The notes under the pieces were generated by a model. That model made no database searches and was not told where the DNA came from. It was given only the letters and a program-made list of their open reading frames with translations. Below, piece after piece: positions 15,901 through 61,722 of a DNA stretch of 64,000 nucleotides (position 1 is the stretch's first letter; every line of letters starts with the position of its first letter). The stretch is from positions 160,001-224,000 of the forward strand of contig CM000429.1 in NCBI GenBank assembly GCA_000165345.1, read 5' to 3'. The position numbers and the translations under genes are program-made.

Positions 15901-15950
15901 TGCATGTTCCCGCCTAAAAGCCATGTGGCCAATGCATGCAATACCGGTAC
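15901..15950. promoter_or_regulatory. Promoter motif cluster for the divergent coiled-coil and HAD genes: TGCATGTTCCCGCCTAAAAG (E2F-like on the minus strand) and AATGCATGCAATACCGGTAC (composite GCATGCA + ACCGGTA).
   Basis: Motif matches. A CCAAT box (ggccaatgc) is also present. Confidence 0.5.
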
Positions 15951-20820: not shown

Positions 20821-21233
20821 AGGTACTATCTTGATATTCCAGTTAATGTCAAAATAAAAATTTAGGGAAAGCCCGCCCAAACTTAATTACCAAGATTTTA
20901 ATTTCGCATGTTTTAAAAGTACAAGGTTGAATGTGGGGAGAAGAATTAAATACAGAGGGAAATTAGGAAAAAAAAGGAAAAGAACTTATATTTAAATAAA
21001 TATTTATTTATTTATTTAAATAGATCAAAAATTCAGAAAGTTAAAGTTTTATTCATAAGTTAAGAAATCCACAGGATAATATTATTAGAGGAAAAGAGAG
21101 TTTCAAAGAGAAATAAGAAGAGAAGCTCAAGTCTAAGGAAATAGGATTTTAATATAGATACTTGATTATAATATGGAAAAATTCTTAATACAGTAAGGTA
21201 GTGGAAGTTTTTGACAGAATCTGTGAAAAAAAA

Positions 21234-24200: not shown

Positions 24201-27200
24201 TTTTCCCAAGATCATCCAATTTTATCTCCAAATAATAGTAATAATAATAACAATAACAATAATGATAATCCAAATCATACAATTCTTGGCTCTTTATCCA
24301 GTACAATTATTACTTTACAACTTAAAAATCAAAAAATTACTTTAAATCCTTCACTTGAAGATGTTAAATCTTTATGGTTAAGACGATTCCATCAAGAAAT
24401 TACAAAAATTACAAATCTTCCAAGAGTTACCAATATCTCAAGTATTCCACAAACATCTCCTTTTTATAATGATATCTCCAAAGCTAAAGAAGAATTAGCA
24501 ACTTTAATTTCTGGAAAAAATGAACAAATTGATGAAAATCCTGTTAATTATGTAAATAGTGATGATATTGGATCAGTTAAACATATTCCACTTGATCATA
24601 CATACAGACATTTATTTCTATTTCTACCAAAATCTCTTTTAGAATGGAGTTATAAAAGTATTGATGATGTTTTTTCTTCTATTAAAGTTTCTATTGATTA
24701 TTGGACAAGATTTGAAGCTTTATGGTTTGTTGAATTAAGTAGTGTTACTGGAAAATTGAATAATCTATTACAATGGCAACAATTAGTGAAAGAAATGAGA
24801 AATTTAAGAACAACATTTAGTTCTAATGAAGATTTACGTTGGTTTTGTAGTAAAATTGCTTTGGATACATCTGCTATACAAGCAAAAATCATGAGTAAAT
24901 ATGATGGTTTAGCTAGAGAAATTCTTCATTTATATGCATCCAAATTAAATGAACAACTTTCATCTTATTGGACTTCAATTAGTACTATTAAACAAACATT
25001 GGATAAATTAGAACCATTCTTGGCTCAATGGTTGATTTGGATTGATAAGAATTCTTCAAGTATATCTACTTTAGTCTTAAAATCTGAAAATATTCCAACA
25101 AAAGGTTCTGTTATGACTAATTTACCTCCAGGAGGAGAAGCTTTACATTCTTCATTAATTGATTTAGTATCTAAAATGGTATCAGCACAAGATCAAGATC
25201 AGAAGATTGGATCTGATTTACCATTATTTTCTGATGGACAAAAATTTCTTGAAGTTCAAAGATTTACATTTCCTAATGATTGGATTTGGGTTGAACAATT
25301 TGAAGGTGAATATGATAAATCTCATCAAAGATTAGAACATTGTTTTGCTAATGTAATATTTCCAAGTAGAAGAAAAATTGAGAATTATCTTAAACTTTGT
25401 TTACAATTAATATTTATGTCTTATCAAGAACTATTATCAGAATGGACTCGATTAAGAGGAATAACATTTGTTAAGAATCCTTTCTTAATGTTAGATCAAA
25501 TTGGAGTAATTGAAAATAAAGTCAATGTTTTACGTCAAGATATTGAATCATTTAATATGATTTTTAAAGCTTTTAAATTTGATTCTTCTTGGATTGATAC
25601 TGAATTAAATAAAGTAACAAGTGAAACATTTGATACAATTCTACGTGATCTTAAAGACTTTAAAGAGATATGGAATCAATTAAATGTATTCTTTGTAATG
25701 ATTAGTGAATATAAAAGAATGTTATGGACAGAAGTTAATGTTAAAACACTTAAAACTAATTTAGAGAGTTTAATTTCGAATTTGAAATCAATACCAGTTA
25801 AATATAGACAATATGATGCATTTGAACAATTACAACATGATGTTGAAGGATATAATAAAAATATGGGTTATATTTCTAGGCTTAAAGCTGAGTATATGAA
25901 AGAAAGACATTGGAAATTATTATTGAGTAAAGTTATTTGGCATGAAAAGACGAGTAATTCAGGATTAGAATCATCATCTACTGAAGGAGGAGCAGGAATG
26001 GGAACTGGAGCAGAAGGAATTCAGTCCACAAATCAAGAAGAAAAATCCACAAGTAATATTGAAAATGATCAAAGCCAAAATATTCAAACTTTAACTAGTC
26101 TAACTAAAACAGGAATGAAAAATTTAAGATCTTCAAGATCGATGAAATTTTCATCCATGAGTAGTTCAAGTATTTTTTCTATGTCAATATTCTCAACTTT
26201 AACTTTAGGAGATGTTTGGTCAATTAATTTTGATGCATCTTCAGCTATTATGTCAGAAATATTAGCTAAAGCTCAAGGAGAACATGGATTAGAATCATAT
26301 ATTCAAGGTATGAAAGAACTTTGGAATGGATTTGAAATCGAATTTACTGGACTTCCTAATAATCCTAATACAAAAGTTATTAAGAATTGGGATATTATGT
26401 TAACAGCAATTGATGATCATTTAAGTGCTTTACAAAATATGTCACTTTCTCCATTCTATGAAATCTTTCAAGAAGAAAGTCAACTTTGGACAGAAAAATT
26501 AACAAAACTTAGATTTACTTTAGATCTTTGGATGGAAACACAAAGAAGATGGATATATTTACAAGGAATATTCTTAGCTAGTACTGATATTGCTAATCTA
26601 CTTCCTCAAGAATATAAAAGATTTCAAACTGTTGATGCTGAAGTACAAGGATTATTAAAGAAATCTCAATCAAGACCTAAAGTTATTGATCTTCTTACTT
26701 TTGAAGGTTTAACTAAATCATTAGAAAGAATTAGTGATTATTTGAATAAGATTCAAAAAGCACTTGGTGAGTATTTAGAGAAACAAAGAAGTATGTTCCC
26801 AAGATTTTACTTTATTGGTGATGAAGATTTATTAGAAATGATTGGTAATGGTAAAGATATTACTGTTGCTCAGAGACATTTTAATAAGATTTTTGCAGGA
26901 ATCACATTCTTAAAATTTCAAGATCTTATGGATGAAAATATTGATCAAAATATACAGGGAAAGAAAAATAATGGAAATAGAAATAATCAAAAAGATGAAC
27001 AAATTGAAAGTATGATTATTGGTATGGGATCTAAAGAAGGTGAAGTCATTCATTTTAAAGATCCTATTCCAATATTAAAAGATACCTCTTTAGTAGAATG
27101 GCTTGGTAAAGTTGTACAAGCTATGCAAATTACTTTAAATGATTTAATAGGAAAAGCAATAGAAGATATTATTTCAAATTTTGGAATGTCTTCATTTACT

Positions 27201-30200
27201 GAAGATGATCATATTCTTTCAGAAAAATTAAGATCTAATTTTGAAAAATATCCAACACAAGTACTTTTAGTAGCTTGGATGTCTTGGTGGACAAAATTAA
27301 CAGAAGAATCATTTTCATCAGGAACAAGTACAAAACAATTACAAGAATTTATACAAAGAATACTTTCTAGATTGAGTGATATTGTTGCAACTTTGGAAGA
27401 AAATACATGTCATAAAATTAAATATAATCAATTAATTGTAGAATTTGTACATGAAAGAGATGTTTTAAGTCATTTAATTGAACAAAATGTAACATCTAGT
27501 CAAAGTTTTCATTGGCTTCAATATATGAGAATGTATTGGATGAGTAAAGATTGTCAAAAAAATCTGAAAGATCTTGAAATGATTGGTGAATTTGATAATG
27601 ATATTATTGTAAGAACAGCAAATTCTGCTTTTATTTATGGTTATGAATATCTTGGTATTCCAGAAAAATTGGTTCAAACTCCTTTAACTGATAGAACTTA
27701 TTTAACTTTAACTCAAGCTTTACATATGAGACTTGGTGGAAATCCATTTGGTCCAGCTGGTACTGGTAAGACAGAAACTGTTAAAGCTTTAGGAAATCAA
27801 TTAGGAAGATTTGTTTTAGTTTTTAATTGTGATGAACAATTTGATTTTACTGCAATGGGAAGAATTTTTGTTGGTTTATGTCAAGTTGGAGCTTGGGGTT
27901 GTTTTGATGAATTTAATAGATTACAAGCAAGAATATTATCAGCAGTATCAGAACAGATTTTAACAATTCAAACAGCATTAATAAAGAATAGTAATACTGT
28001 AGAACTTTTAAATAAGACAATTCCAATGAGTCAAGATGTTGGTATATTTGTTACAATGAATCCAGGTTATGCTGGAAGATCAGAATTACCTGATAACTTA
28101 AAACATTTACTTAGAGAAATTGCTATGGTAGTACCAGATAGACAAAGAATTGCTGAAGTAACTCTTTTTGCTCAAGGTTTTCAATTTGGTGAAATGATTT
28201 CACGTCAAATTGTGACATTATTTGAACTTTGTCAATCTCAAATGACAAGTCAACCACATTATGATTTTGGTTTACGTTCAATGAAATCAGTACTACGTTC
28301 AGCTGGTAAGCTTAAAAAATCTGCAATATCTGAGAATAAAGAAGCATTGGATGATCCACAAAAACTGGTAATATTAGAGCAACAACTAATTATTAGATCA
28401 ATATCATCAACATTATTACCAAAATTAGTTTCAACTGATGTTCCTTTATTAACAACATTATTTCAAGGAGTTTTTCCTCAAGTTCCATTTGAATCTTTGA
28501 ATGATTCATTAATGGTAGAACAAGTCAAATTGATTTGTAAGAGAAATTCTTTAGAAGCAACATCTCAATGGTTGGATAAAACATTACAACTTTTTGAGAT
28601 TCAAAAATTAAATCATGGTATAATGTTAGTTGGATCAACAGGTACTGGTAAGACAACAGTAAGAAAGACTTTATTAGAAGCAATGGATACAGTTCAAGGA
28701 TCTAAAACAATAAGTTATGTAATAGATCCAAAAACTATTGATAAAGAAAGTTTATTTGGGAAATTGAATCCAGTAACGTTAGAATGGACTGATGGTGTAT
28801 TTACAGCTATATTAAGAAAAATCATTAATTCCTCTGATAATAATAATAATAATAATAATAATGATCAAACAGGATCAGGAGGAGTTGGTGGGATTAATAA
28901 GAAATATTGGATAATATTTGATGGTGATGTAGATCCTGAATGGGCAGAGAATTTGAATTCTGTATTGGATGATAATAAACTTTTAACTCTTCCAAATGGT
29001 GAAAGATTAGAACTTCCTCCTTGGGTTAGAGTAGTATTTGAAGTACATTCTTTAGCAACTGCTACATTAGCAACAGTTTCTAGATGTGGTATGATTTGGT
29101 TCAATGATGAGATTATTTCTGATGAAATGTATTTTACTTCATTTTTATTTAATAAGATCAAGATGGGAAATAATACAATTAATAATGTGAATACTGGTCC
29201 AAACTCTTCTAATACTGGAGGAGGAGGAGGGGGATCTTCAAAAATTTCAGAATCTGCTACTTCTGATCAACTTGGTGAAGGAAGTGATAATATAGGTAAT
29301 AATACAACTGGTATGGAAGAATTTGAATCAGCTGAAGGAACAGGAATTGAACAAAATTTAGAAACCTTATTAAGAAATAAAGCATATTCAATATGGCAAT
29401 CAATATTATTCAAAGATTCATTTGGTTCAAAATGTCTCTCATTTGCATCAAAAAGACCTCATACAATGGTTTTTACAAGAATTCGAGTCTTAGAAGCTGC
29501 ATTTTCATTACTCAATAGTTCTATTAAACTATTATTAGACTCTAATTCTACTATGGGAAATGGTAAATTACCACCAATGGATTCTTTAACAGAATTCTTC
29601 TCTCGTTGGCTTATTTGGTCTTTAATTTGGGGATTCTCCTCAAGTATGAACCTCTCTGATCGAATATCTTATACTAAAGAAGTTATCTCTATTGTTACAT
29701 TTACTGATCTTCCACCAATGGAAGATGAAAATATTTCTATTCTTGATTTCAAAGTTGTTATTCCAACAGGAGAATGGAGAAAATGGAGTTTAGAATGTAA
29801 AGAAACTGAAGATCTTCCTCTTAATAAAGTTCTTGATTCAAATGTTATTATTGAAACTGTCGATACCCTTCGTCATTTTCAAGTATTACATGCTTGGTTA
29901 CATGCTCATCTTCCTGCAATATTATGTGGACCTCCTGGTAGTGGAAAAACTATGACATTATCATCAGTATTAAGAAGTATGACAGATGTTGATATTGTTT
30001 CATTAAACTTTTCATCAGCTACAACTCCTGAAATATTATTAAAAACATTGGAACATTATTGTGAATTTATTAAAGCTCCAAGAGGATGGATATGTCGTCC
30101 AATGGTACCAAATAAATGGTTAGTAGTATTCTGTGATGAATGTAATTTACCAGAACCTGATAGATATGGTACTCAAAGAGTTATTATGTTTATAAGACAA

Positions 30201-33200
30201 TTAATTGAATGTAAAGGATTCTGGAGAAGAGAATCATCACAATGGAGTTTTGTAACTTTAGAACGTGTACAATTCATTGGAGCTTGTAATCCTCCTACTG
30301 ATACTGGAAGACATCCTTTATCTGATCGATTCTTACGTCATTCTCCAATATTATTTGTTGATTTCCCAGGAAAAAGTTCTCTAAATCAAATATATTCAGT
30401 ATTTAATAGAGCAATTTTAAAACCATTCCCAACACTTTCTAATCATGCTGATGCATTAACTAAAGCTATGGTTGATATATATGATGCTTCAGCTAAAACT
30501 TTAACTGTTGATCTTCAACCACATTATATTTATTCTCCAAGAGAATTAACTAGATGGAAAATTTCTATTTATTCTGGACTTCATAGTTCTAAAGGATCAG
30601 GCTCAAAATCTGGATCAGGACCCTCATCACAATCTATATCTACAAATCAAGAAGCATTAAAAAGAGTCCTGGATAAATTTGGAGCAGATTCTAATCTTCA
30701 ACTTGAAGAAGAAAATGAACTTACTTTAACTCAACTTATTAGACTTGTACTCTATGAAGGTGAAAGAATATTCCAAGATAGACTTGTTGAACAAAGTGAG
30801 AAAAATTGGTCACAAGAAATGATGAATGAAATGATTATTAAACATTTCCCAAATCTATCCATTGAAAAAGATCTATATAGACCTCTATTATTTACTAATA
30901 TTGTCACTTCTATATGCAAAGAAATTCCAAGATCTATTGTTTCTGAATATTTACAAGATAGATTAACTTCTTATTATGAAGAACAAGGAACTTCAAAACT
31001 TGTTTTCTTTGATGAATTCCTTGATAATATTAATAGAGTTGATCGAGTATTAAGACAACCTTTTGGACATTTATTATTAATTGGACCTCCAGGATGTGGA
31101 AAAACACTTCTTGCTGATATGGTTTCTTGGTTAAATGGATTAAATGTATTTACTATTAAACCTGGAAGAAAATATGATATTTTTGCATTTGAAGCTGATT
31201 TAAGATCTGTTATGAAAAGAGCTGCAATTAAAGGAGAAAAATTAACTTTCATTTTTGAAGAATCACATGCTTTAGGTCCAGCTTTTATTGAAAGAATGAA
31301 TGCATTATTAGCTTCAGGAGAAGTACCAGGATTATTTGAAGGAGATGAATATAATCAACTTTTAAATGAATGTAGAACAGCATTTAGCAATAGCTCATCA
31401 GTTTCAATTTCTGATGATGGAAATGAGTTATTTGCTAGATTTACTAAACTTGTACAAGAAAATCTTCATATTGTTTTTACATTAAATCCTGCTAATCCAA
31501 ATTTCAAAGAAACACAATCTTTATCACCAGCTTTATTTAATCGTTGTGTTGTTAATTGGATGGGTCAATTAAATAATCAAGCTTTAAGTCAAATTGCAAG
31601 ATCATTCTTACATTTAGATTCACAATTAACAAAAAATGATCAAGATCAAGTACTCATACAATCTGAAGAAACTACTGAATCATCAAATCATAATCATTCT
31701 TCAATCATTTCAGCAATTGAAAGAATACCTACAAATTGTATGCCTTCAGTTGAACAACCTGAAGAAAGAGTTGCATTAACAATTGATTGTATTATTTCAT
31801 TATTTCATGCTGAAGTTGGAGAAGATGGAGGTATTAAAAAAACTTCAACATGTAATACAAATTCACAAGAACATTCAATGATGAGAAGAACTCCAAGAGA
31901 TTTCTTTGATTTCTTAAAACATATTATTAAAATATATAAAGAAAAGAATGAAACATTATTAGAACAACAACAACATTTATCTTCAGGATTAGAAACTTTA
32001 AGAAGTACAGAACAAGAAGTTGCTACTCTTCAACAAGAACTTGGTGAAAAAGAAAAGATATTAATAGCTAAAAATGTTGAAGCAGAACAAAAAATGCAAC
32101 AAATGATTAAAGAACAAGGAGAAGCTGAAGAAAAGAAGAAAACTACAGAAACTTTAGCAAAATCATTAGATGAACAACAAAAAGTAATAGCTGAAAGATC
32201 AAGTGAAGTAGAAATACAATTAAAAGATGTTGAACCAATACTTAGAGAAGCAGAAAATGCTGTTTCAAATATTCCAAAGAAGAATTTGGATGAATTAAGA
32301 TCAATGGCAAATCCTCCTGGTCTTGTTAAGAAGACGATTGATGCTGTTGCAATATTACTTACAAATAATTCAACAAAACCTCAAGCGTGGGAAGAGAGTA
32401 GAAAATTACTCAAGAGTTCAGATTTTATTACAAAAGTATTAAATTTTGATTCAAATACAATAACTTTAAAAACTATGCAAAGATTACAAAAAGAATATTT
32501 AGAATCACCAGAATGGGATACAGAAAAAATTAATAGAGCAAGTCATGCAGCTGGTCCTTTATCTTCATGGGTATCGAGTATATTACAATATTCATTAATA
32601 AGTGAAAAAGTACAACCATTAAAAACAGAGATTAGTCAATTAGAAAAATCAAAATTAGAGAATGAAAAGGGATTAGAAGCAGCTCAAAAATTGGTTGGTG
32701 AATTACAAGAACGTATAGATGTTTATAAGAAAGAATATGCAGAATTAATATCTCAAGTACAATTAATAAAAAGAGAAAAAGATCTTGTAACAAATAAAGT
32801 AGAAAGAAGTATAAGATTATTAGGTAATTTAACAACAGAACAAGATAGATGGAGAGAAGCTAAGGAAGGATTTAAGACAGAATTTTCAAATATTATGGGA
32901 GATTGTCTTTTATCAGCAGCATTTATATGTTTTGCAGGAGGTTTAGATCAGATTTTAAGATCACATTATATAAAATTATGGCAAGAGATTTTGGATGAAT
33001 TTCAATTATCACATACAAATGCTAATACTTTTAAGATTGTTGATTATTTATCAAAACCAAATGAAAGATTATTATGGCAAAGTTATGGTTTATCAAATGA
33101 TGATTTAAGTGTAGAAAATGCAATAATAATAAAGAGACATATTCGATACCCATTTATAATAGATCCATCAGGATATGCAACAAGTTTTCTATTAGAGATG

Positions 33201-36200
33201 AATAAGCATAGTAATAGTAATGCAAATCAAGGGAAAGGAGGAGGTAAACTTCAGACAAGTACTTTTTCTGATTCAAATTTTCCAAAATTATTAGAATCAT
33301 CATTAAGATTTGGTTCATCATTATTAATTCAAGATGTAGGATCATCATTAGATCCTTTAATATATAATGTATTAAATCAAGAAATTCATTTACATGGAGG
33401 AAGATCATTAATAACAGTAGGAGATAGTGAGGTTGATTTTTCTCCTCATTTTAGAGTTTATTTAACAACTCAAGATCCAACAATCCAATATGGTCCAGAT
33501 CTAACAAGTAGGGTAACGATGGTAAATTTTACTGTAACACCAACATCACTTTTAGAACAGAGTAGAAATATTATTTTGAAAGAATTACGTCCAGATATTG
33601 ATAAGAAAAGAACAGATTTACTTAGATTACATGGTGAATATCGTGTACAATTAAGAGAATGTGAAGATAATTTGTTATTAGCTTTATCAAATGTGAAGGG
33701 TAATATTTTAGAAGATGAGACAATTATTAATACATTAGAAGTACTTAAAAAGAAAGCTCAAGATATACAAATAGAGACAGCAAAAATGGAGAATACTATG
33801 GAACATATAGATCAAGTACTTACTCATTTACTTCCATTATCATTAACAGCAACAAGAATTTACTTTACTTTACAACATTTATCATCAATTAGTCCAATAT
33901 ATCAATATGATCTTGAATTTTTTAATAGAATACTATATGGAGTATTAGAAAGAAATAAATCAAAGATTAATTCAAATTCAAGTGATAATGGAGGAGATCA
34001 TGAAGGAGATAATGGAGAAGAAAGTAGTAATAATAATATAGAATTTGATCACAAGATACAAAAGATTATAATCTTAGATCTATTGCATGAAGCATATTTA
34101 AGAGTTGCTCAAGGTTTATTACATAATGATAGAATAGTATTTGGATTACATTTGATGAGAATTTATATTGAATCATATTGTAATCTTTCTTTAGATAATT
34201 TAATGGGAAAAGAAATTGATCTTTTAACAAAATCAGCATCAGCAATCAATATATCAAGTTCAAGATCTTCTTCTTCAAATAACAATATATTGGATTCTAT
34301 ACCAAAATCTTTTGGATTAGATCGAGAACAAATGAATCAACTTTCTGTAATGATTTCATCAATTAAATCGTTTTCTAAACTTTGTGAATCATTTAATTCA
34401 AATAAAAATGAATGGGAGCAATTAATGATTTCAACAGAACCTGAAGTAATATTAGATACCTTAGGTACCGGTATATGGGATGATCAGGAATTATTAGATT
34501 CAATATTCAATAATGATGATAATAATAATAATCAGATGAATTCTGAAGAATTTAATGAGAAGAGAGAAATATTAAAGAACTTTAAAAAAGGTGTATTAAA
34601 ATGTTTATTATTAAAGATTATTCGTCCTGATCGTATTGTTACTTTATTTAACAAGTTAATATCAGATACATTAGGATCTGAATTTTCTAATATCAGTGAA
34701 TTTTCTAAGGATTTACTTAAAGAGATTGTTTTGAAGCAAATAACTGAAATAACACCAATATTATTTGTAACTTCACCAGGTTTTGATGCTTCTTTGGTGG
34801 TTTCTCAATTAGCAAATGAACAGAATTCGAATTTACTTTCTATTGCAATAGGATCAGCAGAAAGTTTAGAAAAAGCTGAATCATCAATTAAGACAGCAAT
34901 GAGAAAAGGTACATGGGTTATGTTAAAAAATGTTCATTTATCTTCAGGTAATTTGGATTATTTGGAACAATTACTTCAAAATCGTCAAAATAGACCAAAT
35001 AAAGGATTTAGATTATTTTTAGCAACAGAATTACCAAAAAAGATTTTGAATCCAAGTCATAAAGATTCAGTTATTGGTGCATCATTTAATACATCAGATT
35101 CTTCATCAGGTTCATTATCACCACTTGGTATATCATTTAATTTAATTCGTATTTCAATGACAATAGTACTTGAATCTCCTGTTGGACTTAAAGCAGCATT
35201 ACAAAGAGCAAGTGAGATTACTATTAAGACTGTGGATGATTCTCAATCTTCTTCAACAATAAGAATAAAATTATACTTTTTATTAGCATTTTTACATTCA
35301 GTAATATTAGAAAGAAAAAGATATACACCATTAGGATGGACAAAGTTTTATGATTTTAGTGAAGCAGATCTTCAATGTTGTATTAATATAGTAAATCAAT
35401 GGACAATAACAAATATATCAGGAGATCCTGAACAGATTCCATGGGAAGCAGTACGTAAATTAGTATCACAAGTAGCATATGGAGGAAGATTGGATAATAT
35501 TGTAGATAAACAGATTTTATATATATTAATAGATGAGATTTTATCATCAAAATCATTTGAAGATGGATCAGAATTAATAAGTTGTACAAGTGAATGGAAT
35601 AAATTATATAGAAATGATCAAATAAAGCCAAATATTTTATTAGCTCCAGATACATCTAAAAAAGTTCAGAATTATTTGGATTGGGTAGAAAAATTATCAA
35701 GTACAAATTGGCCAACTTGGCTTGGGTTATCTCCTTTAGCAGAGAATGTGATTTCAGCACAAAAAGGACAAAAGATGAGTTTAAATTGGAGTGTATTAAT
35801 AATTAGATCAAGAAATGAAACACCAGATTTGATCCCAAAAGATAAAGGTAATATGATTACAAATATAGAAGAAAATGAAGAATTAATGGGAGATGGAGGA
35901 TTATCAGGAGGAGGAAATAATAAGATAGAACAAGAAGAGGCATTAAAATCAGATACAACAGGAATACCAAGTTGGTTATTAAAGATTAGTGGAAAATTAA
36001 CAAAAATGGAGAATAGCTTAAGAATATTTTCAGAATATATAATAAAGAATTCAAGAAATATTATAGAATATTCAGAGAATAATAGTTTGGATCCAATATT
36101 AAGATATTATGTTTCAGAGATTTCGAAATTCTATAGAGGATTTAAAAATATTTGGGAAAACATTCATGAATTATTAAATATTCTTGGAGGTGAATCAAAA

Positions 36201-36974
36201 CTAACAAATAATTTAAGAAGTATAGGATTAAGTATACAATCAGATTTAGTACCAGATTTATGGCTAAAATTATTACCAATATTACTTTATTCATTAGATA
36301 TTTGGCTTTCAGATTTGATTCGAAAACTTTCACAGAATTGTTTATTAATTTCAAGTATATGTAAGAAATTGGATATAAAAGTAATAGAAGGAGGAGAAGA
36401 TTCAAGTAAGATGGATATTTTCTTATCAAATGTATTAATATCATCACCAGGAATAAAGAAGATTGGATTAAAAACAATTTGGGTAGGAGGAGTATGTGAT
36501 CCAGGAGCTTTCTTTACAGCAAGTAAACAATATGCAGCAAAGAGATTTGGATGTAGTTATAATGATATAGTTCCAAGAATAATATCAATAGGAGAAATGG
36601 TGGAAAATGAGAATGAAGATGGAGATGAGGCAAAATTTGTATTAGGAGGATTAACAGCAGTAGCTTTAGAATGGAAACAAGAATCAAAATTATTTGAATT
36701 AAGTACAGAAAAGGCAGTATCTGAAGTTCCTCCCATATTAGTAGAATGGATAAAGGGAGATTTAGATATGATTACAAATCATAATATTTCTGACAACAAT
36801 TATGAATTGAATATAATTCCTCAAAATTCTTTGGATAATTCGATTGCAATTCCAATATTTAAAGATTCAAACAGATCGCAAATATTGATGTGGATAAATG
36901 TTCCAGCAAAAGCAAATGAGAACATTAAACAATGGAGACTTGCTTCAACTTCATTAATTTTATGGAAGGGATAA
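21234..36974 (+). CDS. Cytoplasmic dynein 1 heavy chain, a single exon of about 5,247 aa.
   Basis: The ORF-track start at 21201 is a GTG; the first ATG is at 21234 (MSQRAKTS...). Four AAA P-loops are present: GPAGTGKTET (AAA1), GSTGTGKTT (AAA2), GPPGSGKTMT (AAA3) and GPPGCGKTLL (AAA4). The linker (SITQWIREIQ), the coiled-coil stalk and the C-terminal AAA5/6 region are all recognisable. Asn-rich insertions (NNNNNNNNN) occur in the tail and motor domains. Confidence 0.93.
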   Translation: MSQRAKTSLINFLLEVVPSALDCSRQQLTSLLTGKGDEQLKRFLRETDVHCLIVGKEKVMESNVGRETNSEGLNLNDTISGENRLDYNEEVVQHQVFIETFMTSRCLKASLMVFVKNPGFQVSEDGIITTSVDRGAETSESAGTDSPEDHTKTTGVVSHSKSLSSSLQCIQLGFVGSQLTPYEVLNQYLQFAFTPLLDALGNAKTTSGTIGGEIGDSVDSTESGSHLGLENIQRKVNELCLALQQGQDDSMIPMVKLNLDPKVAEYAKEYKNTGKINNMDEIIEDSTFLSSLQVSITQWIREIQSLARFQRDIGLSVTSEVKFWSSYERSLQQILKQVQSPEVEWSLSVLRQSKKFLAAISLEVDTGLKQSIEKVQNINTLIHDIPINDLLVATSIDEITSAVTLFFQQLRKIKGAASYPISRTFQLVEVYSNDMTKQMYKVLQNNPTTSLMLLEFPVFEHLVNGCNELGQVWEDEWRELKDVIRDLIKKRGLSERAHPKMDFAHVPLIQRLNDIVIFRKQHQKLKDTLLELLSIQTSASSNEQTDQNPLSALGIEQNSGIDALQSLAKKDLQQAYACVANINILDLSAIGLEAWEAGKQAYNNKVDASETLLIKQLREQLSGCGNTLEMFRILGRYNPLFFRPRIRSAVEEYQSILLEKVQSDFQLLQLRYQNPYQRSAASQFSCLRDIPNIGGMLVWSHLLQERIQSIYFKLEDIFGPNWEFESQGHKVKTDGDHITSKIHPNQIVDFWLQQRKDDKLTYDLNKPVLGLMKSGNLSTTSFILASTIDSGILSLFKDLRIIQSYAYRVPYSVKVLADELKLLYPYISHLNSLCINWMRIATQLEVEPGKRISPLLTPFRQEVYNIIQEGISLSWSSDRLEGFIRRFYDSVDTLEQKFEAVMTLDEQLSVLVSQIRNIQVSKGLGELVSHLSKIGSKCQEFQSLLLAYRIDYLFYWDQVIQSFLLPKLKEFVQLWINQFISIGGVDHEVFSQDHPILSPNNSNNNNNNNNDNPNHTILGSLSSTIITLQLKNQKITLNPSLEDVKSLWLRRFHQEITKITNLPRVTNISSIPQTSPFYNDISKAKEELATLISGKNEQIDENPVNYVNSDDIGSVKHIPLDHTYRHLFLFLPKSLLEWSYKSIDDVFSSIKVSIDYWTRFEALWFVELSSVTGKLNNLLQWQQLVKEMRNLRTTFSSNEDLRWFCSKIALDTSAIQAKIMSKYDGLAREILHLYASKLNEQLSSYWTSISTIKQTLDKLEPFLAQWLIWIDKNSSSISTLVLKSENIPTKGSVMTNLPPGGEALHSSLIDLVSKMVSAQDQDQKIGSDLPLFSDGQKFLEVQRFTFPNDWIWVEQFEGEYDKSHQRLEHCFANVIFPSRRKIENYLKLCLQLIFMSYQELLSEWTRLRGITFVKNPFLMLDQIGVIENKVNVLRQDIESFNMIFKAFKFDSSWIDTELNKVTSETFDTILRDLKDFKEIWNQLNVFFVMISEYKRMLWTEVNVKTLKTNLESLISNLKSIPVKYRQYDAFEQLQHDVEGYNKNMGYISRLKAEYMKERHWKLLLSKVIWHEKTSNSGLESSSTEGGAGMGTGAEGIQSTNQEEKSTSNIENDQSQNIQTLTSLTKTGMKNLRSSRSMKFSSMSSSSIFSMSIFSTLTLGDVWSINFDASSAIMSEILAKAQGEHGLESYIQGMKELWNGFEIEFTGLPNNPNTKVIKNWDIMLTAIDDHLSALQNMSLSPFYEIFQEESQLWTEKLTKLRFTLDLWMETQRRWIYLQGIFLASTDIANLLPQEYKRFQTVDAEVQGLLKKSQSRPKVIDLLTFEGLTKSLERISDYLNKIQKALGEYLEKQRSMFPRFYFIGDEDLLEMIGNGKDITVAQRHFNKIFAGITFLKFQDLMDENIDQNIQGKKNNGNRNNQKDEQIESMIIGMGSKEGEVIHFKDPIPILKDTSLVEWLGKVVQAMQITLNDLIGKAIEDIISNFGMSSFTEDDHILSEKLRSNFEKYPTQVLLVAWMSWWTKLTEESFSSGTSTKQLQEFIQRILSRLSDIVATLEENTCHKIKYNQLIVEFVHERDVLSHLIEQNVTSSQSFHWLQYMRMYWMSKDCQKNLKDLEMIGEFDNDIIVRTANSAFIYGYEYLGIPEKLVQTPLTDRTYLTLTQALHMRLGGNPFGPAGTGKTETVKALGNQLGRFVLVFNCDEQFDFTAMGRIFVGLCQVGAWGCFDEFNRLQARILSAVSEQILTIQTALIKNSNTVELLNKTIPMSQDVGIFVTMNPGYAGRSELPDNLKHLLREIAMVVPDRQRIAEVTLFAQGFQFGEMISRQIVTLFELCQSQMTSQPHYDFGLRSMKSVLRSAGKLKKSAISENKEALDDPQKLVILEQQLIIRSISSTLLPKLVSTDVPLLTTLFQGVFPQVPFESLNDSLMVEQVKLICKRNSLEATSQWLDKTLQLFEIQKLNHGIMLVGSTGTGKTTVRKTLLEAMDTVQGSKTISYVIDPKTIDKESLFGKLNPVTLEWTDGVFTAILRKIINSSDNNNNNNNNDQTGSGGVGGINKKYWIIFDGDVDPEWAENLNSVLDDNKLLTLPNGERLELPPWVRVVFEVHSLATATLATVSRCGMIWFNDEIISDEMYFTSFLFNKIKMGNNTINNVNTGPNSSNTGGGGGGSSKISESATSDQLGEGSDNIGNNTTGMEEFESAEGTGIEQNLETLLRNKAYSIWQSILFKDSFGSKCLSFASKRPHTMVFTRIRVLEAAFSLLNSSIKLLLDSNSTMGNGKLPPMDSLTEFFSRWLIWSLIWGFSSSMNLSDRISYTKEVISIVTFTDLPPMEDENISILDFKVVIPTGEWRKWSLECKETEDLPLNKVLDSNVIIETVDTLRHFQVLHAWLHAHLPAILCGPPGSGKTMTLSSVLRSMTDVDIVSLNFSSATTPEILLKTLEHYCEFIKAPRGWICRPMVPNKWLVVFCDECNLPEPDRYGTQRVIMFIRQLIECKGFWRRESSQWSFVTLERVQFIGACNPPTDTGRHPLSDRFLRHSPILFVDFPGKSSLNQIYSVFNRAILKPFPTLSNHADALTKAMVDIYDASAKTLTVDLQPHYIYSPRELTRWKISIYSGLHSSKGSGSKSGSGPSSQSISTNQEALKRVLDKFGADSNLQLEEENELTLTQLIRLVLYEGERIFQDRLVEQSEKNWSQEMMNEMIIKHFPNLSIEKDLYRPLLFTNIVTSICKEIPRSIVSEYLQDRLTSYYEEQGTSKLVFFDEFLDNINRVDRVLRQPFGHLLLIGPPGCGKTLLADMVSWLNGLNVFTIKPGRKYDIFAFEADLRSVMKRAAIKGEKLTFIFEESHALGPAFIERMNALLASGEVPGLFEGDEYNQLLNECRTAFSNSSSVSISDDGNELFARFTKLVQENLHIVFTLNPANPNFKETQSLSPALFNRCVVNWMGQLNNQALSQIARSFLHLDSQLTKNDQDQVLIQSEETTESSNHNHSSIISAIERIPTNCMPSVEQPEERVALTIDCIISLFHAEVGEDGGIKKTSTCNTNSQEHSMMRRTPRDFFDFLKHIIKIYKEKNETLLEQQQHLSSGLETLRSTEQEVATLQQELGEKEKILIAKNVEAEQKMQQMIKEQGEAEEKKKTTETLAKSLDEQQKVIAERSSEVEIQLKDVEPILREAENAVSNIPKKNLDELRSMANPPGLVKKTIDAVAILLTNNSTKPQAWEESRKLLKSSDFITKVLNFDSNTITLKTMQRLQKEYLESPEWDTEKINRASHAAGPLSSWVSSILQYSLISEKVQPLKTEISQLEKSKLENEKGLEAAQKLVGELQERIDVYKKEYAELISQVQLIKREKDLVTNKVERSIRLLGNLTTEQDRWREAKEGFKTEFSNIMGDCLLSAAFICFAGGLDQILRSHYIKLWQEILDEFQLSHTNANTFKIVDYLSKPNERLLWQSYGLSNDDLSVENAIIIKRHIRYPFIIDPSGYATSFLLEMNKHSNSNANQGKGGGKLQTSTFSDSNFPKLLESSLRFGSSLLIQDVGSSLDPLIYNVLNQEIHLHGGRSLITVGDSEVDFSPHFRVYLTTQDPTIQYGPDLTSRVTMVNFTVTPTSLLEQSRNIILKELRPDIDKKRTDLLRLHGEYRVQLRECEDNLLLALSNVKGNILEDETIINTLEVLKKKAQDIQIETAKMENTMEHIDQVLTHLLPLSLTATRIYFTLQHLSSISPIYQYDLEFFNRILYGVLERNKSKINSNSSDNGGDHEGDNGEESSNNNIEFDHKIQKIIILDLLHEAYLRVAQGLLHNDRIVFGLHLMRIYIESYCNLSLDNLMGKEIDLLTKSASAINISSSRSSSSNNNILDSIPKSFGLDREQMNQLSVMISSIKSFSKLCESFNSNKNEWEQLMISTEPEVILDTLGTGIWDDQELLDSIFNNDDNNNNQMNSEEFNEKREILKNFKKGVLKCLLLKIIRPDRIVTLFNKLISDTLGSEFSNISEFSKDLLKEIVLKQITEITPILFVTSPGFDASLVVSQLANEQNSNLLSIAIGSAESLEKAESSIKTAMRKGTWVMLKNVHLSSGNLDYLEQLLQNRQNRPNKGFRLFLATELPKKILNPSHKDSVIGASFNTSDSSSGSLSPLGISFNLIRISMTIVLESPVGLKAALQRASEITIKTVDDSQSSSTIRIKLYFLLAFLHSVILERKRYTPLGWTKFYDFSEADLQCCINIVNQWTITNISGDPEQIPWEAVRKLVSQVAYGGRLDNIVDKQILYILIDEILSSKSFEDGSELISCTSEWNKLYRNDQIKPNILLAPDTSKKVQNYLDWVEKLSSTNWPTWLGLSPLAENVISAQKGQKMSLNWSVLIIRSRNETPDLIPKDKGNMITNIEENEELMGDGGLSGGGNNKIEQEEALKSDTTGIPSWLLKISGKLTKMENSLRIFSEYIIKNSRNIIEYSENNSLDPILRYYVSEISKFYRGFKNIWENIHELLNILGGESKLTNNLRSIGLSIQSDLVPDLWLKLLPILLYSLDIWLSDLIRKLSQNCLLISSICKKLDIKVIEGGEDSSKMDIFLSNVLISSPGIKKIGLKTIWVGGVCDPGAFFTASKQYAAKRFGCSYNDIVPRIISIGEMVENENEDGDEAKFVLGGLTAVALEWKQESKLFELSTEKAVSEVPPILVEWIKGDLDMITNHNISDNNYELNIIPQNSLDNSIAIPIFKDSNRSQILMWINVPAKANENIKQWRLASTSLILWKG
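24229..24275 (+). repeat. (AAT/AAC)n coding microsatellite giving a poly-Asn run in the dynein tail. A second one lies at 28838-28863, and an (ACA)n poly-Thr microsatellite lies at 49679-49706 in the PDI-like gene.
   Basis: Visible trinucleotide runs that translate to NNNNNNNNN and TTTTTTTTT. Confidence 0.7.
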
Positions 36975-37212
36975 AAGTTTGGAAATGGGTGGAATTTGCG
37001 TCAAGTGCATGCACGAGACGGCGCGCGGTGGTCTGCATGCATGCCGGTAAAAATGGGTACCGTAGGTAATAATAATTGTTGATAAGAGAGAAGAAAGGAA
37101 ATAAGAGGTGGAGAATTGTTGTAAATGTTATTATTTTAAATATAAGAATAAAATACTTACATTTTAATTTTAATCTACTTATGTATTATTTGTATGATTG
37201 ATTGATAATTGA

Positions 37213-39552
37213 CTATTGATAGAAATAGTTCCAAAAACTGTTAGATTCTTCACCTTCGAACTCAAAGTAAATAGAACTGATTTCTTTTATACTCAATTTT
37301 GAATTGTTTCTAATTAGTAGAATTAAAAGTTGGGTAATATCTAACTCGAAATGATGATTATTAATTTGTTCATTGAGGTTAGTTTTCTCATAATCCTTTA
37401 AACTTTGATTTTCAGCAGTACTTAATATTAATGAAGATACATCTGCATGGTTATGACTATCATTTCCTTGAAAATGTTCGGAAAGAATTTGTTTGGCTTG
37501 ATTAAAGTACGTAGTCTTAGATCCAATCCAAAGATAAACCATAATGTTTTTAATAGGATTTTTTTCTAAGGGTGAAAGTGGGAGATTGGTTTGTTCTTTG
37601 TCTTTTTCTTTTTCTTTATCTTTTCTCTGTTCTTCTTGTTTCTTTTTCTGTTCTTCTTTTTCTTTATTTTTTTGTTCATCTGAAGTGATTTCTCCAATGA
37701 TAATGAGAGGACAGACTGAGGTAGGAAGAAGATCCTCAGAATCAAAAAAGCGAAGAGACTCTGATCCAAAATAATCTGGAAATCTAAATAATAAAACTTT
37801 CATTCTTCCACTATCTAAAGTACTGTGGCAATCCTCATTCATAGAAAGATTTTCTTGAGATATAGAACTTCTTTTTGAGTAGCTGCTATTATTAAAACAG
37901 AAAACCTCTTCCTGGAAAAAATGTATTGAATGTTGCTTCTTTACAGGAGCAGAATCTTCTTTAGTAGAAAATGAATGAACTTTTAAGTCTTTCATTTCTG
38001 ACTCTTGTGACTGAGAATGATCTTCCAAAGATTTATCTCCACCTTTGAAAGCAAAATTCAACTTTGGTATCACAACTTTACCAAAAGTCAAAGGACAACT
38101 TTCAATTTCTCTACTTTCCTTTTCCAGAAGATTATCTCTTGAGTAGATAATTCTCCGAGAATCTAATGAAAAATGATGTTGGTTGATTCGTCCCATTTCT
38201 TTAATAGATTCTGTATCAGAGCTTTTGAAATTATCAGGTGAATTTTTTGAAGGAATTGGAGATCCATTTGAAGACGGAAAAGAAGAAAAGTATGGCAAAG
38301 ACTCGTCCAAAGATATTAAAGATGATAACTCTGAGCTTGATTGAGAATCTGAACTCAATCTATCTATTTGGTTGTAATTTCTTTCATTATTATCAACCCC
38401 AACATCTTCGGCCTCATCTTCGACATCATTCTCATAATCCAAAATAATGGCATTTTTGGAAATACTTTTTATCGATGGAGAGGAAAATGACCTTTGTATT
38501 ACGTCATAGGAATTACATAAATGCAAATCTGTTGGCGCCAGAATTTGCATGAATTCCCCGCTCTCTGAGAATTCGTGAAAGTATTCGAGAATAATGGTGG
38601 AAGAAAGGATATTTGTAATACATTCAGAGGCTGAATTTCGGTCATCTGCAAGAGCTCCAATTATCAAGTCTGCTCTGATTTCTAAGTTTTCCAGCTCTAA
38701 AGATGAGTCATATCCTATTTCGATTTTGAGAATTTGTCTGCAAAACCTCAAAACCGCTAGAATTGACTCCCTAACGCCCTCATTAACTTGGCTTCCAATC
38801 CAAATCCAAAGTTTCTCACGACGAATAGAGTCTGCTTCCTCTAGAAGACTTTGTCTTAATAGATAGATTTTATTTGAATTTAGACTAAATTTATTACTTC
38901 CGTCCCCTTTCCAATGAATTAACGAAACTGGAATGCCATGTTTAGATATATAGTAAATCTTTGAAGAAGTAATCCAATGTTTCTTTCCAAGATGGTCTAT
39001 TGAAGGAAGCTCAGCTTTTTCTCCCCCTCCTTCTTCTTTTTCATCCCTAGTTGGAATCCCAAATTTTACCAAACTCAGAGCTTTCTGAAATAATAATAGC
39101 TGATAAGTAAACCCAATATTTGGACTTGAAGTGCCCCTTCTTTCTCTTACATATTCTGAAGCATCATTAAAGCTTTTATTATATTTCCACATTAAATAAC
39201 CGATTACTATACTAGAGGATCTAGAAACACCCTCTTGACAATGTACATATATCCTGTTTTCATTGCTTTCCTTGAATTTTGCATCAATCCATTCAATACT
39301 ATCATAAAGCACTCCTTCAATGCTTTCTTGAGGAGTATCCAAAACATAATAAGTCCTGTACTCTAGCTTATTTTGAAACACATTCTTGCAAACATCTCCT
39401 GAAACATTAATTATATGCGTTATCTTGTTTTTTTCCAACTTATTCCAATCACAAGCTACCTGATATCCTCCGAGATACAGTCTACCTTCAATTATCTCAC
39501 TACAAACTGTTCTATACCTTTTAATTATATTCAAACGTTCATTCGTTAGCAT
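37213..39552 (-). CDS. Dual-specificity protein phosphatase with a long low-complexity C-terminal extension (about 780 aa).
   Basis: The ORF-track start at 39570 is a TTG; the first ATG is at 39552..39550 (MLTNERLNIIKRY...). The DUSP catalytic signature VHCQEGVSRSSSIVIGYLM (HCxxGxxRS) lies in the N-terminal domain. The C-terminal half is K/E-rich low complexity. The internal ORFs 37544..37774, 37566..37769, 38238..38447 and 38594..38866 are artefacts. Confidence 0.8.
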   Translation of the reverse strand: MLTNERLNIIKRYRTVCSEIIEGRLYLGGYQVACDWNKLEKNKITHIINVSGDVCKNVFQNKLEYRTYYVLDTPQESIEGVLYDSIEWIDAKFKESNENRIYVHCQEGVSRSSSIVIGYLMWKYNKSFNDASEYVRERRGTSSPNIGFTYQLLLFQKALSLVKFGIPTRDEKEEGGGEKAELPSIDHLGKKHWITSSKIYYISKHGIPVSLIHWKGDGSNKFSLNSNKIYLLRQSLLEEADSIRREKLWIWIGSQVNEGVRESILAVLRFCRQILKIEIGYDSSLELENLEIRADLIIGALADDRNSASECITNILSSTIILEYFHEFSESGEFMQILAPTDLHLCNSYDVIQRSFSSPSIKSISKNAIILDYENDVEDEAEDVGVDNNERNYNQIDRLSSDSQSSSELSSLISLDESLPYFSSFPSSNGSPIPSKNSPDNFKSSDTESIKEMGRINQHHFSLDSRRIIYSRDNLLEKESREIESCPLTFGKVVIPKLNFAFKGGDKSLEDHSQSQESEMKDLKVHSFSTKEDSAPVKKQHSIHFFQEEVFCFNNSSYSKRSSISQENLSMNEDCHSTLDSGRMKVLLFRFPDYFGSESLRFFDSEDLLPTSVCPLIIIGEITSDEQKNKEKEEQKKKQEEQRKDKEKEKDKEQTNLPLSPLEKNPIKNIMVYLWIGSKTTYFNQAKQILSEHFQGNDSHNHADVSSLILSTAENQSLKDYEKTNLNEQINNHHFELDITQLLILLIRNNSKLSIKEISSIYFEFEGEESNSFWNYFYQ

Positions 39553-40002
39553 ATTAACTTTTTCCCCCAAAAATCCAGAATACTTATTATACTAATTATC
39601 AACTTATCTGTGTTTTCTATTCCCAAAATCTCCTCCCCCCTATTCTCTTCCCTTATTTTCATCAAGCTCTCTTCTGAAAGCGATTTAAAAGAATCCTTTT
39701 TTCAAAAATAAAAATACCAAAAATAAACCCAAAAACTATATCAGATATTTTGTATTCGTTAAGTCTTATCAAGCCTTAATTATTTAATTGTTCGTTTCCC
39801 CCTCCCCTCCTTTTCCTTGGGCTTTTCCCTTGGAAGAAGAAAAAAATCTTTTAGCCAAAATAATACCTCGGAAACAATCTTCTTATTGCCACTAGATCTA
39901 TTATCTTTATCTATAATTTTGTGAAATTTCTCTCTTTTCCTTCCCTTAACCTATTATTTTCCACTTTTTTATCCAAAAAATTATCAAATCCTATTTTTCT
40001 AT

Positions 40003-40092
40003 TTTGGCGGGAAAGCATGCTTACAATTTTACGAGACTGCTTTCTATATGTGAGAAATAAGTTTTCATGTTTTTTTTAGTTTTGGCGGGAAG
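40003..40092 (+). promoter_or_regulatory. Two E2F-like boxes, TTTTGGCGGGAAAGCATGC at 40003-40020 and TTTGGCGGGAAG at 40081-40092, in the divergent promoter between the DUSP gene and the 40261 gene.
   Basis: The first box abuts a GCATGC motif. The nearby CT-rich tracts at 39621-39660 and 39795-39835 are listed separately as polypyrimidine tracts. Confidence 0.55.
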
Positions 40093-48530: not shown

Positions 48531-49026
48531 TCTGTGAGATGGGGGTCATTAGAAAAAAGGATTAAAAGAGATGGAGGAAGAGGGGGAGGGGAGAGTAGTA
48601 AGAATATCGTAATAGAAATCAAGGAAAGAAGAAGAAGCTATTTCCTACCTTTTTATTAGGTATAATTATTATCTAGATAGAGTTTAAACATATTAATTTA
48701 TATAATAACTTTTTCCCCAATAATAATATTAAATATGAATAAAAAAATAGTATGAAAAAAAAAAATGAAGAAGAAAGTAAAATCCTTCCAATATAAGATA
48801 TAAAGGATAAAAAAAAATCTACGAATTTTCCACTTTTCAACACTTTCTTTAACTTTGATGATGTGTTTTTATTTACAAACTTTATTTGTTTTTCTTTCTT
48901 TCATTCATTCTTTCTCTTTCTAAATATTTTTATCTATCTTTATTTACTCCTGGAGATCACCCCCTTTACCTGGATCTATTTTTCAAACCTAATGAAGAGG
49001 CAGCGCATGCAAGATCGGCATGCAAA

Positions 49027-49060
49027 AAAATTCCCGCCACCTGTACTAAGAATGGGCGGG
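49027..49060. promoter_or_regulatory. E2F-like AAATTCCCGCCACC (GGTGGCGGGAATTT on the minus strand) plus a GGGCGGG box, flanked by two GCATGCAA motifs at 49004-49022, in the PDI-like gene upstream region.
   Basis: Motif matches in the 1 kb intergenic region upstream of the ATG at 49499. Confidence 0.5.
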
Positions 49061-53423: not shown

Positions 53424-54604
53424 GAGTTTTCTTCTTCAGTGGCTTGAAATATTAACACATCCCTACTAATTTGTCAAAGTAGACTCTGTTTTTTTTTTAA
53501 ATAGATTTAATAATTTTCTTTAATTGTTATTAAATTAATTAGTAAAATATTAGTTAATTATTGAATAAACAAATTCATATATAAATATATATATTTTGAT
53601 ACTTAATTTTTTTTTTCTCAATTTTTTAATTCTTTCTGCAAATTATTATTTCAAGATGAAAGCACTTTATAATTGAATAAAAGACAAACTCTAATTATTT
53701 TTTTTTTCTTCTCTTGTGAGAAAATTGAGCAGTCTTTTATGCTGTCCTTTTCCCTAATACTCTCAAAATCCCATTATTTTCTTCTTTATTAATAAAATTC
53801 ATATATTACATATATACCCATGCACGTATTTAAATATAGTCAATTTTTTTTTTAAAAATTTGCAACAAGACTGCACACAACACGTGTCATTTTGCATGTA
53901 CAAAATTGCAATACCGGCGTGGCAGCAGTTCCACATGAAAATACACCGGTACTAAAACACTTGCATAAATTTTTGTCCACATGACATTGGAATTATAAAA
54001 AAAATGACAACGGATGAGATACAAAATTTGAATATTTTACTTTAAATAATTGACAAAATAATGAGTTTTTAATACGAAAACAAGATATGAATTTAATGCA
54101 AACATATAAATGTATATATTTTTAAAATTATTCTCTCGATAATTGGGGACTTTTATATTAGTCTAACCATTTTCAAAAGGAGCGCATGCAGGTTATCCAC
54201 ATGCACATGCACTTTGGCAAACATTTTTTTAGCAATAAATTACCGGCATGATAATACAGATTTTAAGTCTTAACTAGAAATTGAGGATTTTTTTTTAATT
54301 AAAAATTAAGATGCTAGTTATTTTAAAAAGATTTAATCTATAAAAAAAAATTGACTTTTTATTCCAAATTAATATTTTAATGAGGGGACAAGGTAGAAAT
54401 ATATTTGTGGGGAGCTTGGTGGGGCAATGCAAAAACAATAGATTTAATTAGGCGGAAACAGAATAAAAAAAAAAAAAATTAAGATCACCAAGAGAAAAAA
54501 GACCAAGTTTGAATAGGTAACAAGAATCAATTAGCTAAATATCGAGAATTTAAGTTCGACCCAGTATTGCCAAATTTTCTATAAAATAGTGAAATGTTGG
54601 CCTG

Positions 54605-60218: not shown

Positions 60219-60544
60219 CTCAGTTGCTTTGTAATTAGATTCTCCATTATTTACTATATACCAATCTCTTCTTTGATTTAAATAACGCAAATAATATAAT
60301 TCTAATTTAGTTTTTATATTAAATTCTATTATACTAGTTTTAGTTATTGCAATTTTTCTTATCCACTTTTTTTCTCATTTCAATTTTCTCCTATACCGGT
60401 ATTTCCATATATTCATATTGTAATCACATGCTTATGTGGACAAATTAATTATTAACATTTTCCGCATGCAAATACCGGTCAACCATAATTTATGGGAATG
60501 TTATGAAAAGGAAAAAAGTTTTTTTTTTATTATTAAATGTAAAG

Positions 60545-61453: not shown

Positions 61454-61560
61454 TTTTTTTTATTATAAATATCAATTCCAGTAATCTCCTTATAAACTCA
61501 ATAAATAAATTTTTATTTTTTTTTGAATATATTATAATTTATTCAACACAAATTCGGAAA

Positions 61561-61605
61561 AAAATGACGTAATATATTTGCATGCATGCAATTATACCGG
61601 TATGG
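61561..61605. promoter_or_regulatory. MND1 upstream cluster: CRE-like TGACGTAA at 61565-61572, TGCATGCATGCAATT at 61580-61594 and ATACCGGTATGG at 61594-61605.
   Basis: This lies 110-150 nt upstream of the MND1 ATG at 61453 on the minus strand. Confidence 0.45.
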
Positions 61606-61722
61606 TATTTTCATCATACATGCAGAGTTTAAGGTGGAGGCAAAGGGAAAAAAGAAAATAGTTGTAAAATATCAAATAAAATTAATATATACTTTTAAAG
61701 AAGAATTCTAAAGTTTTATTTA

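Follow-up and report, generated by a model that had tools for sequence, protein, structure and literature searches.

Gene regulation in Cryptosporidium is little understood, and ~10% of its genes have antisense transcripts. Most published promoters of long non-coding RNAs (lncRNAs) in this genus are inseparable from a bidirectional promoter shared with an mRNA. Here we ask why a dense cluster of promoter-type motifs should lie at a site where two genes end, in the spacer between a dynein heavy-chain gene and a phosphatase gene that converge on each other. We analyzed the whole 64-kb stretch of DNA around this site (the window; all positions refer to it) together with 17 further loci that were used for sequence comparisons. 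The cluster corresponds to a 65-bp, deeply conserved promoter candidate with no mRNA starting on either side.

A GC-rich motif island lies between two converging genes

The first gene is a dynein heavy-chain ORF of 5257 aa on the + strand (21201-36974), whose orthologues are annotated with DHC Pfam domains. It is followed on the - strand by an ORF of 785 aa for a dual-specificity phosphatase (DUSP; 37213-39570; PF00782), which has its stop codon at 37213-37215. This layout confirms that both genes end here, with the dynein stop at 36974 and the DUSP stop at 37213 as given in a preliminary description of the locus, and it defines a convergent spacer of 238 nt (36975-37212). The DUSP of the window is 100% identical to one protein that had been put together from a number of sequencing runs; its identity to the DUSP of C. 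meleagridis is 88%, and to that of the chipmunk genotype I 76%. These identities, taken with that of a helicase described below, place the window in the C. parvum group of Cryptosporidium, probably on chromosome 1. The locus is found ~55-65 kb from the contig start in four assemblies. At the far end of the dynein gene, the ORF begins with GTG at 21201 and gene calls made on other assemblies are shorter, at 5245 aa instead of 5257 aa; two short + strand ORFs upstream (19675-20037 and 20122-20475) could be separate genes or upstream exons. The DUSP promoter is 2.6 kb away from the convergent site. The nearest downstream genes on the same strand are 3 kb off for the + strand (40261) and 19 kb off for the - strand (18040), with antisense coding sequence between.

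Within this spacer, a patch of 65 nt (36998-37062) starts 24 nt 3´ of the dynein stop and is separated from the DUSP stop by 150 nt. Its GC content is 61.5%, compared to 20.4% for the remaining spacer and 29.4% for the whole window, and it contains eight CpG dinucleotides, compared to 7.5 per kb across the window. The 60 nt at 36988-37047 have the joint-highest GC content in the 64 kb. The tie is with a purine-rich G-box/GAGA-type tract (GGAGGGGGATCTGAGTAGGGAAGGGTAAGGGGGAAAGG...; 63670-63790, 63% GC) close to the end of the window, ~240 nt past the ribosomal protein S19e ORF, where it probably serves as the promoter region for the following gene, outside the window.

The patch is built from a small number of recognizable sites. 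The first is the palindrome TGCATGCA (37006-37013), a putative AP2_1 site of the ApiAP2 family that is contained in a 10-nt palindrome, GTGCATGCAC. Next to it, GGCGCGCGG (37020-37028) comprises two overlapping [C/G]GCGC[G/C] cores of the E2F/DP1 type (GGCGCG at 37020 and CGCGCG at 37022), and TGCATGCATGC (37034-37044) comprises two overlapping AP2_1-type sites, such that GCATGC is present at 37007, 37035 and 37039. The last element, CCGGTA-N8-TACCG (37044-37062), consists of the inverted half-boxes CGGTA and TACCG and is also present in C. meleagridis and the chipmunk genotype I, while its TACCGTAGG part was additionally detected in the orthologous locus L008. The preliminary description of a GC-rich, 75-nt patch with two GCATGCA-type boxes, an E2F-like core and an ACCGGTA box is correct with regard to the GC richness, to the sequence that it quoted, and to the boxes and core, which are all present at 37006-37044. 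The quoted sequence spans 65 nt. The ACCGGTA box is missing, as the sequence reads GCCGGTA (37043-37049) and then GGTACCG.

Two of these motifs have known counterparts. The AP2 domain of C. parvum cgd2_3490 binds [T/C]GCATGC[A/G] in protein-binding microarrays (PMC3734150), and the candidate sites in the patch agree with this palindrome, with TGCATGCA at both 37006 and 37034 and TGCATGC(C) at 37038. In C. parvum, no site is more abundant in upstream regions than the E2F/DP motif [A/T][C/G]GCGC[G/C][A/T] (PMC12246861). The core of this motif is present twice in the patch, flanked by C/C and G/G where the full consensus, or a TTTGGCGGGAAA-like site, wants A/T.

We also noted that the CCGGTA element forms, with the GCATGC box that precedes it, a composite that recurs in the window. 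The order GCATGC(A), 0-10 nt, (A)CCGGT, always from left to right, is seen at 15934-15948, 37035-37048, 60464-60479 and 61580-61601, with only ~14 separate GCATGC sites and ~12 CCGGT sites in the 64 kb. This recurrence suggests a two-part element, which is missing from the published C. parvum motif tables that we compared.

The motif cluster is in excess of expectation and resembles gene 5´ ends

Both core motifs are strongly over-represented. GCATGC occurs 19 times in the window compared to 3.25 expected, a count reached in 0 of 100 shuffles, and 18 of the 19 sites are intergenic. SGCGCS occurs seven times compared to 0.39 expected. The three-part arrangement found in the patch, GCATG..SGCGCS..GCATG, has no second occurrence in the window and was not produced by any of 100 dinucleotide-preserving shuffles.

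We then classed the spacers of the window by the orientation of the flanking ORFs and counted AP2_1, E2F-type, ACCGGT and GTGGACA motifs in each. Each of the 12 spacers with a gene 5´ end in it has one or more such motifs; four of the six convergent spacers have none. This distribution agrees with the original impression of a promoter-type cluster where no promoter is expected. The two convergent spacers that do carry motifs, between dynein and DUSP and between a helicase gene and an MND1-like gene, had both been flagged beforehand, and no cluster elsewhere in the window is as dense as theirs (five and four matches per 80 nt). By this count per 80 nt, the patch is the densest promoter-type cluster in the window. 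Its composition is the same as that of the clusters at gene 5´ ends at 15909-15948, 40006-40090 and 49005-49060.

The patch is conserved in related species

The spacers of orthologous DUSP loci were fetched and compared to the window sequence, along with identity at four-fold-degenerate sites, which was taken over the last 130 dynein codons. DUSP converges on dynein in every species for which the spacer was available, and the spacer is invariant among six sequenced isolates. Identity over the patch is 0.96 for C. meleagridis (GTGCATGCACGATACGGCGCGCGGCTGGTTGCATGCATGCCGGTAAAAATGGGTACCGTAGG; dynein four-fold sites 0.67), 0.79 for the chipmunk genotype I (ATGCATGTGTGAGACGGCGCGCATGTGTGCTGCATGCCGGTAAAATGGGTACCGTA; four-fold sites 0.61), 0.69 for locus L009, with a DUSP that is 65% identical (TATGTGTGAGACGGCGCC..TGCATGTATGCATGCATGCAGGGGTAAAATG..TTTGGCGGGAT; four-fold sites 0.68), 0.70 for locus L008, with a DUSP that is 61% identical (GTGCATGTGGACGCGCGCCACATTGTGCATGCATGATATGGCGGGAAAG..ATACCGTAGG; four-fold sites 0.37) and 0.70 for C. 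canis (GCGTGCATGCATGCATGCATGCGGGCGCGCGCTCACACGTGTGGCGGG; four-fold sites 0.19). In five species, a TGCATG-type site is followed by [G/C]GCGC[G/C] and then by TGCATGCATG or an E2F site, with the series starting 27-49 nt past the dynein stop. Canonical E2F sites are present in the orthologous patches of L009 (TTTGGCGGGAT), L008 (TATGGCGGGAAA) and C. canis (TGTGGCGGGC).

The spacers of C. xiaoi, C. ryanae and C. muris (18-25% GC) have no GC island despite the kept gene arrangement. At these three loci, exact matches to GCATGC and E2F-type motifs are near zero overall, the divergent DUSP promoter spacer included. The absence of the patch in these species may partly reflect a diverged motif vocabulary, and the promoter motif vocabulary or its stringency may differ between Cryptosporidium clades. 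A lack of conservation in related species, which the preliminary description had put forward as grounds for giving up its proposal, is not what we observed, as the patch and its counterpart in the helicase/MND1 spacer are both kept in related species. The cross-species conservation strengthens the observation.

A motif pair inside the DUSP coding sequence was considered separately. At 38523-38550, the palindromic E2F-type TGGCGCCA adjoins GCATG within the codons for a conserved peptide, EFMQILAPT. This intragenic TGGCGCCA uses the rare Ala codon GCG, which is kept in the chipmunk genotype I and in L009 and is changed from GCG to GAG in C. meleagridis. We rejected the pair as a conserved regulatory cluster, given that it is lost in C. 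meleagridis and that coding constraint suffices. Its conservation is likely due to coding constraint, with an internal or antisense promoter as another possibility.

A second convergent spacer carries a different set of motifs

The second convergent cluster lies between the helicase gene (57234-60218, + strand), which ends at 60218, and the MND1-like gene on the - strand, which ends at 60545. The helicase is 99% identical to a Sen1/NAM7-like helicase of C. tyzzeri. The module spans 60389-60480 and is composed of CCTATACCGGTATTT, ATGTGGACAA, GCATGCA and ACCGGT, with TACCGGTA at 60394, ATGTGGACAA at 60434, GCATGCA at 60464 and ACCGGT at 60474. In the corresponding spacers, C. ubiquitum has ATACCGTTATTT..CATGTGGATA..GCACCGGTATAGG and C. 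felis has GCATGC..CATGTGGACAA..TTGCATGTA. The claim that the same thing happens at 60380-60480 as at the dynein/DUSP spacer was thus right about the convergent location, the clustering of motifs and the conservation. It does not extend to the composition; the module is AT-rich (32% GC), has no E2F core and draws on another motif set.

The helicase/MND1 module matches motifs 2, 4 and 5 of the set found upstream of C. parvum lncRNAs (Li et al., 2021; PMC7840661). Among the sequences in part of that lncRNA collection, it resembles the 5´ end of Cp_lnc_62 (ACCGGTATAGG..TTGCATGTA..TATGTGGACAA..GCATG; PMC7840661). The pairing of ACCGGT with GTGGACA is also present in the divergent promoter spacer at 53945-53980. 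In its longer form, ACCGGTA with (T)ATGTGGACA(A), the pair is seen in this divergent spacer (53945-53980), in the helicase/MND1 spacer (60394-60443) and, in the same part of the lncRNA collection, at the start of Cp_lnc_62. ACCGGTA and ATGTGGACA are the counterparts of motifs 4 and 5 in Li et al., for which no factor has been assigned (PMC7840661).

Beyond MND1, an intron-bearing gene of 81 aa is annotated between MND1 and RPS19 in C. ubiquitum (L016, 7492-7932) and C. felis (L017, 7359-7820). At the corresponding place in the window (61401-62979) there are only short ORFs, for example at 61723-61887 on the - strand, and a TGCATGCATGCAATTATACCGGTA cluster (61579-61602) lies between MND1 and this short-ORF region.

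The patch is a candidate promoter for antisense transcripts

The sequence features described above make it very probable that the patch is a selected cluster of transcription-factor sites that acts at the level of DNA. On balance, we lean towards the reading that it serves as the promoter of natural antisense or non-coding RNA, with one or several transcripts and in either or both directions. In this model, the two ApiAP2-type TGCATGCA palindromes would be occupied on both sides of the E2F/DP1-type GCGCGC core, with the CCGGTA/TACCG element next to them, a grammar that would match the genuine promoters of the same window. Since both genes end at the patch, and no same-strand gene follows for 3 kb (+ strand) or 19 kb (- strand), any RNA started here would be non-coding. 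A + strand RNA would run antisense through the DUSP gene, and a - strand RNA would enter the dynein gene at its 3´ end in antisense orientation. As both core motifs are palindromes, initiation in both directions would be possible. The resulting antisense lncRNA or lncRNAs could modulate one or both of the convergent genes in a stage-specific manner.

This reading draws on a class of transcripts that has already been described. Li et al., 2021 reported 396 lncRNAs in C. parvum; 363 of them are antisense, with a bias to the 3´ ends of the sense genes (PMC7840661). The E2F/DP1 motif [C/G]GCGC[G/C] and the ApiAP2_1 motif BGCATGCAH were the top two motifs <=100 bp upstream of the 396 lncRNAs; both are palindromic, and they are jointly present at 17 lncRNAs (PMC7840661). 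The patch contains both types of motif and is located at a sense-gene 3´ end, the dynein stop being 24 nt and the DUSP stop 150 nt away. With this motif set and position, which match the upstream regions of Li et al., it fits the described class. Of the three functions suggested in the preliminary description (antisense or non-coding transcription, a downstream enhancer, and 3´-end or boundary definition), antisense or non-coding transcription thus appears to be the best supported, by class-level evidence from the same study (PMC7840661).

With regard to geometry, the patch is in the minority. In the published set of 363 antisense lncRNAs, 309 lie head-to-head with an mRNA upstream of them, an arrangement attributed to bidirectional promoters, and the remaining 54 have no such neighbor, as is the case here (PMC7840661). 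The published pipeline also regarded a transcript as presumed read-through, and dropped it, if it began <50 bp from a CDS upstream on the same strand and was in all cases co-transcribed with that CDS (PMC7840661); this filter biases detection against the geometry of the patch. In part of the lncRNA sequence data, the 5´ end of Cp_lnc_289 bears the same type of cluster (CATGCATGCATGCATGCAATCTCGGGGGCGCGAC; PMC7840661). The sole candidate for a patch transcript by motif string in that part of the data, Cp_lnc_354, was rejected, as its sequence is unrelated.

Several observations count against the promoter reading. The E2F-like core is without the A/T flanks. Sporozoite ATAC-seq peaks, in which the E2F/DP motif is dominant, were reported without AP2 motifs (PMC11761812). 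C. xiaoi, C. ryanae and C. muris, although syntenic at this locus, do not have the patch. Finally, k-mers from the flanks (six 18-mers, taken from 37250-37457 on the + strand and 36500-36917 on the - strand) had no match in part of the lncRNA FASTA of Li et al. (PMC7840661).

Alternative explanations for the patch

The patch could instead be bound by factors without serving as a promoter, either as a roadblock or boundary for the converging polymerases or as a distal enhancer or silencer of DUSP. We consider this unlikely, though the placement between converging units, 27-49 nt from the dynein stop in six species, the conservation in the form of DNA motifs and the lack of an lncRNA from this locus in part of the Li et al. 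data would all be in keeping with it. Promoters and the published upstream regions of lncRNAs have the same motif grammar, and the papers that we consulted describe no roadblock or enhancer activity of these factors in Cryptosporidium. Moreover, such motifs are present in only two of the six convergent spacers of the window, and the patch is missing from three species that keep the gene order, so that it is not a general 3´-end device. Because most convergent spacers are without the motifs and three syntenic species are without the patch, a general role for these motifs at 3´ ends or as boundary elements of convergent gene pairs is unlikely.

A broader proposal, which we regard as speculative and rather unlikely, is that conserved multi-factor modules in convergent spacers constitute, in the ultra-compact Cryptosporidium genome, a distinct device, a bidirectional antisense promoter or a roadblock, that switches both genes in a stage-specific manner. 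Its origin would lie in the intestinal clade (C. parvum to C. canis), as a gain that C. ryanae, C. xiaoi and the gastric lineages do not share. It would work by transcriptional interference or collision control and would not be a by-product of a neighboring mRNA promoter.

With its start 24 nt past the dynein stop, the patch is almost certainly transcribed as 3´ UTR, and its spacing from the dynein stop varies less between species than its spacing from the DUSP stop. It might therefore function at the RNA level in the 3´ UTR of dynein, or in that of DUSP should this transcript extend to the patch, through UGCAUG-type protein sites or a hairpin that affects mRNA stability, translation or 3´-end processing. 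RNA folding makes this improbable. The minus-strand RNA does fold better than shuffles (z = -2.8), but the sole helix consists of the two palindromic GCATGC boxes pairing with each other, and for the plus-strand RNA, which has the sense of the dynein mRNA, there is no gain in folding over shuffles (z = -0.04 to -0.57). For five species, the RNAalifold consensus fold reached only -5.8 kcal/mol; the covariation term was +0.24, a double change was seen in one of nine pairs, and the inner AGAC/GTCT stem is broken in C. meleagridis without compensation. Given self-pairing of a palindrome, no covariation and an inner stem lost in the closest relative, we rejected a hairpin or other structured RNA. 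In addition, the GCGCGC core, like the motif vocabulary at large, is that of upstream regions.

GC-rich islands in AT-rich genomes are often small ncRNA genes, and the patch is a GC-rich island in a spacer of otherwise 20% GC. In C. parvum, 79 novel intermediate-size ncRNAs have been reported, some of them intergenic (PMC9465071). It is nevertheless very improbable that the patch is a small structured ncRNA gene (snoRNA, snRNA or other) or a micro-ORF. ARAGORN detected no tRNA or tmRNA, and there was no Rfam match at gathering thresholds over the whole window and none at E <= 10 on 36900-37300 (400 nt). The changes between species preserve the motifs and not the fold, with no sign of covariation. 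No ORF is conserved over the patch. The overlapping ORFs are just 37-45 aa, and neither those at 36925-37038 (- strand) and 36932-37069 (+ strand) nor the ATG at 37053 keep their frame or length in the chipmunk genotype I and more distant species. An unannotated small protein gene was thus rejected, as indels and substitutions in the orthologues destroy the ORFs. The Z-DNA-like alternation of purines and pyrimidines in the patch was likewise set aside; it follows automatically from both motifs and is preserved by transitions, and is thus not independent evidence.

Short palindromic motifs can recur in general, but a chance or compositional artefact without function is scarcely credible for a three-part pattern that was seen in 0 of 100 shuffles and is kept in six species at distances at which four-fold sites are saturated.

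Comparison with known systems

The yeast CUTs, SUTs and XUTs, the 3´-end antisense transcripts of Plasmodium falciparum and the transcripts from bidirectional promoters in Giardia are mostly attributed to promiscuous or bidirectional initiation. The RNA proposed for the patch would likewise be a natural antisense transcript from a gene 3´ end in a gene-dense genome. The patch differs in that it is a dedicated multi-site module kept in several species, an indication that initiation would be regulated and not incidental. In yeast, DNA-bound Reb1 and Rap1 give roadblock termination, and the patch is similar in that the putative factor sites are located just 3´ of a gene end, between converging units. 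However, nothing indicates that ApiAP2 or E2F/DP1 factors act in this manner, and most convergent spacers of the window are without such sites.

In motif vocabulary, spacing and the appearance of a GC island, the patch is similar to C. parvum mRNA promoters (Oberstaller et al., 2013; PMC3734150; Bankier et al., 2003), as represented in the window by 15909-15948, 40006-40090 and 49005-49060. Unlike these, it has no protein-coding gene downstream on either strand, the nearest being 3 kb and 19 kb away. The closest parallel is to the lncRNA promoters of Li et al., 2021 (PMC7840661), with which the patch, as a candidate promoter, shares both palindromic motifs and the position at the 3´ end of a sense gene. 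It is denser than these promoters, with three GCATGC sites and a double GCGCGC core in 40 nt compared to a typical single motif, and it is located in a tail-to-tail spacer without an mRNA promoter to share. The patch would thus be an unusually clean addition to the class described by Li et al., 2021. Together with the helicase/MND1 module, it adds two examples with differing motif types to this class and leaves the current picture unchanged. With no shared mRNA promoter, the dynein/DUSP spacer would provide a clean test case for independent control of antisense transcription by ApiAP2 and E2F/DP1.
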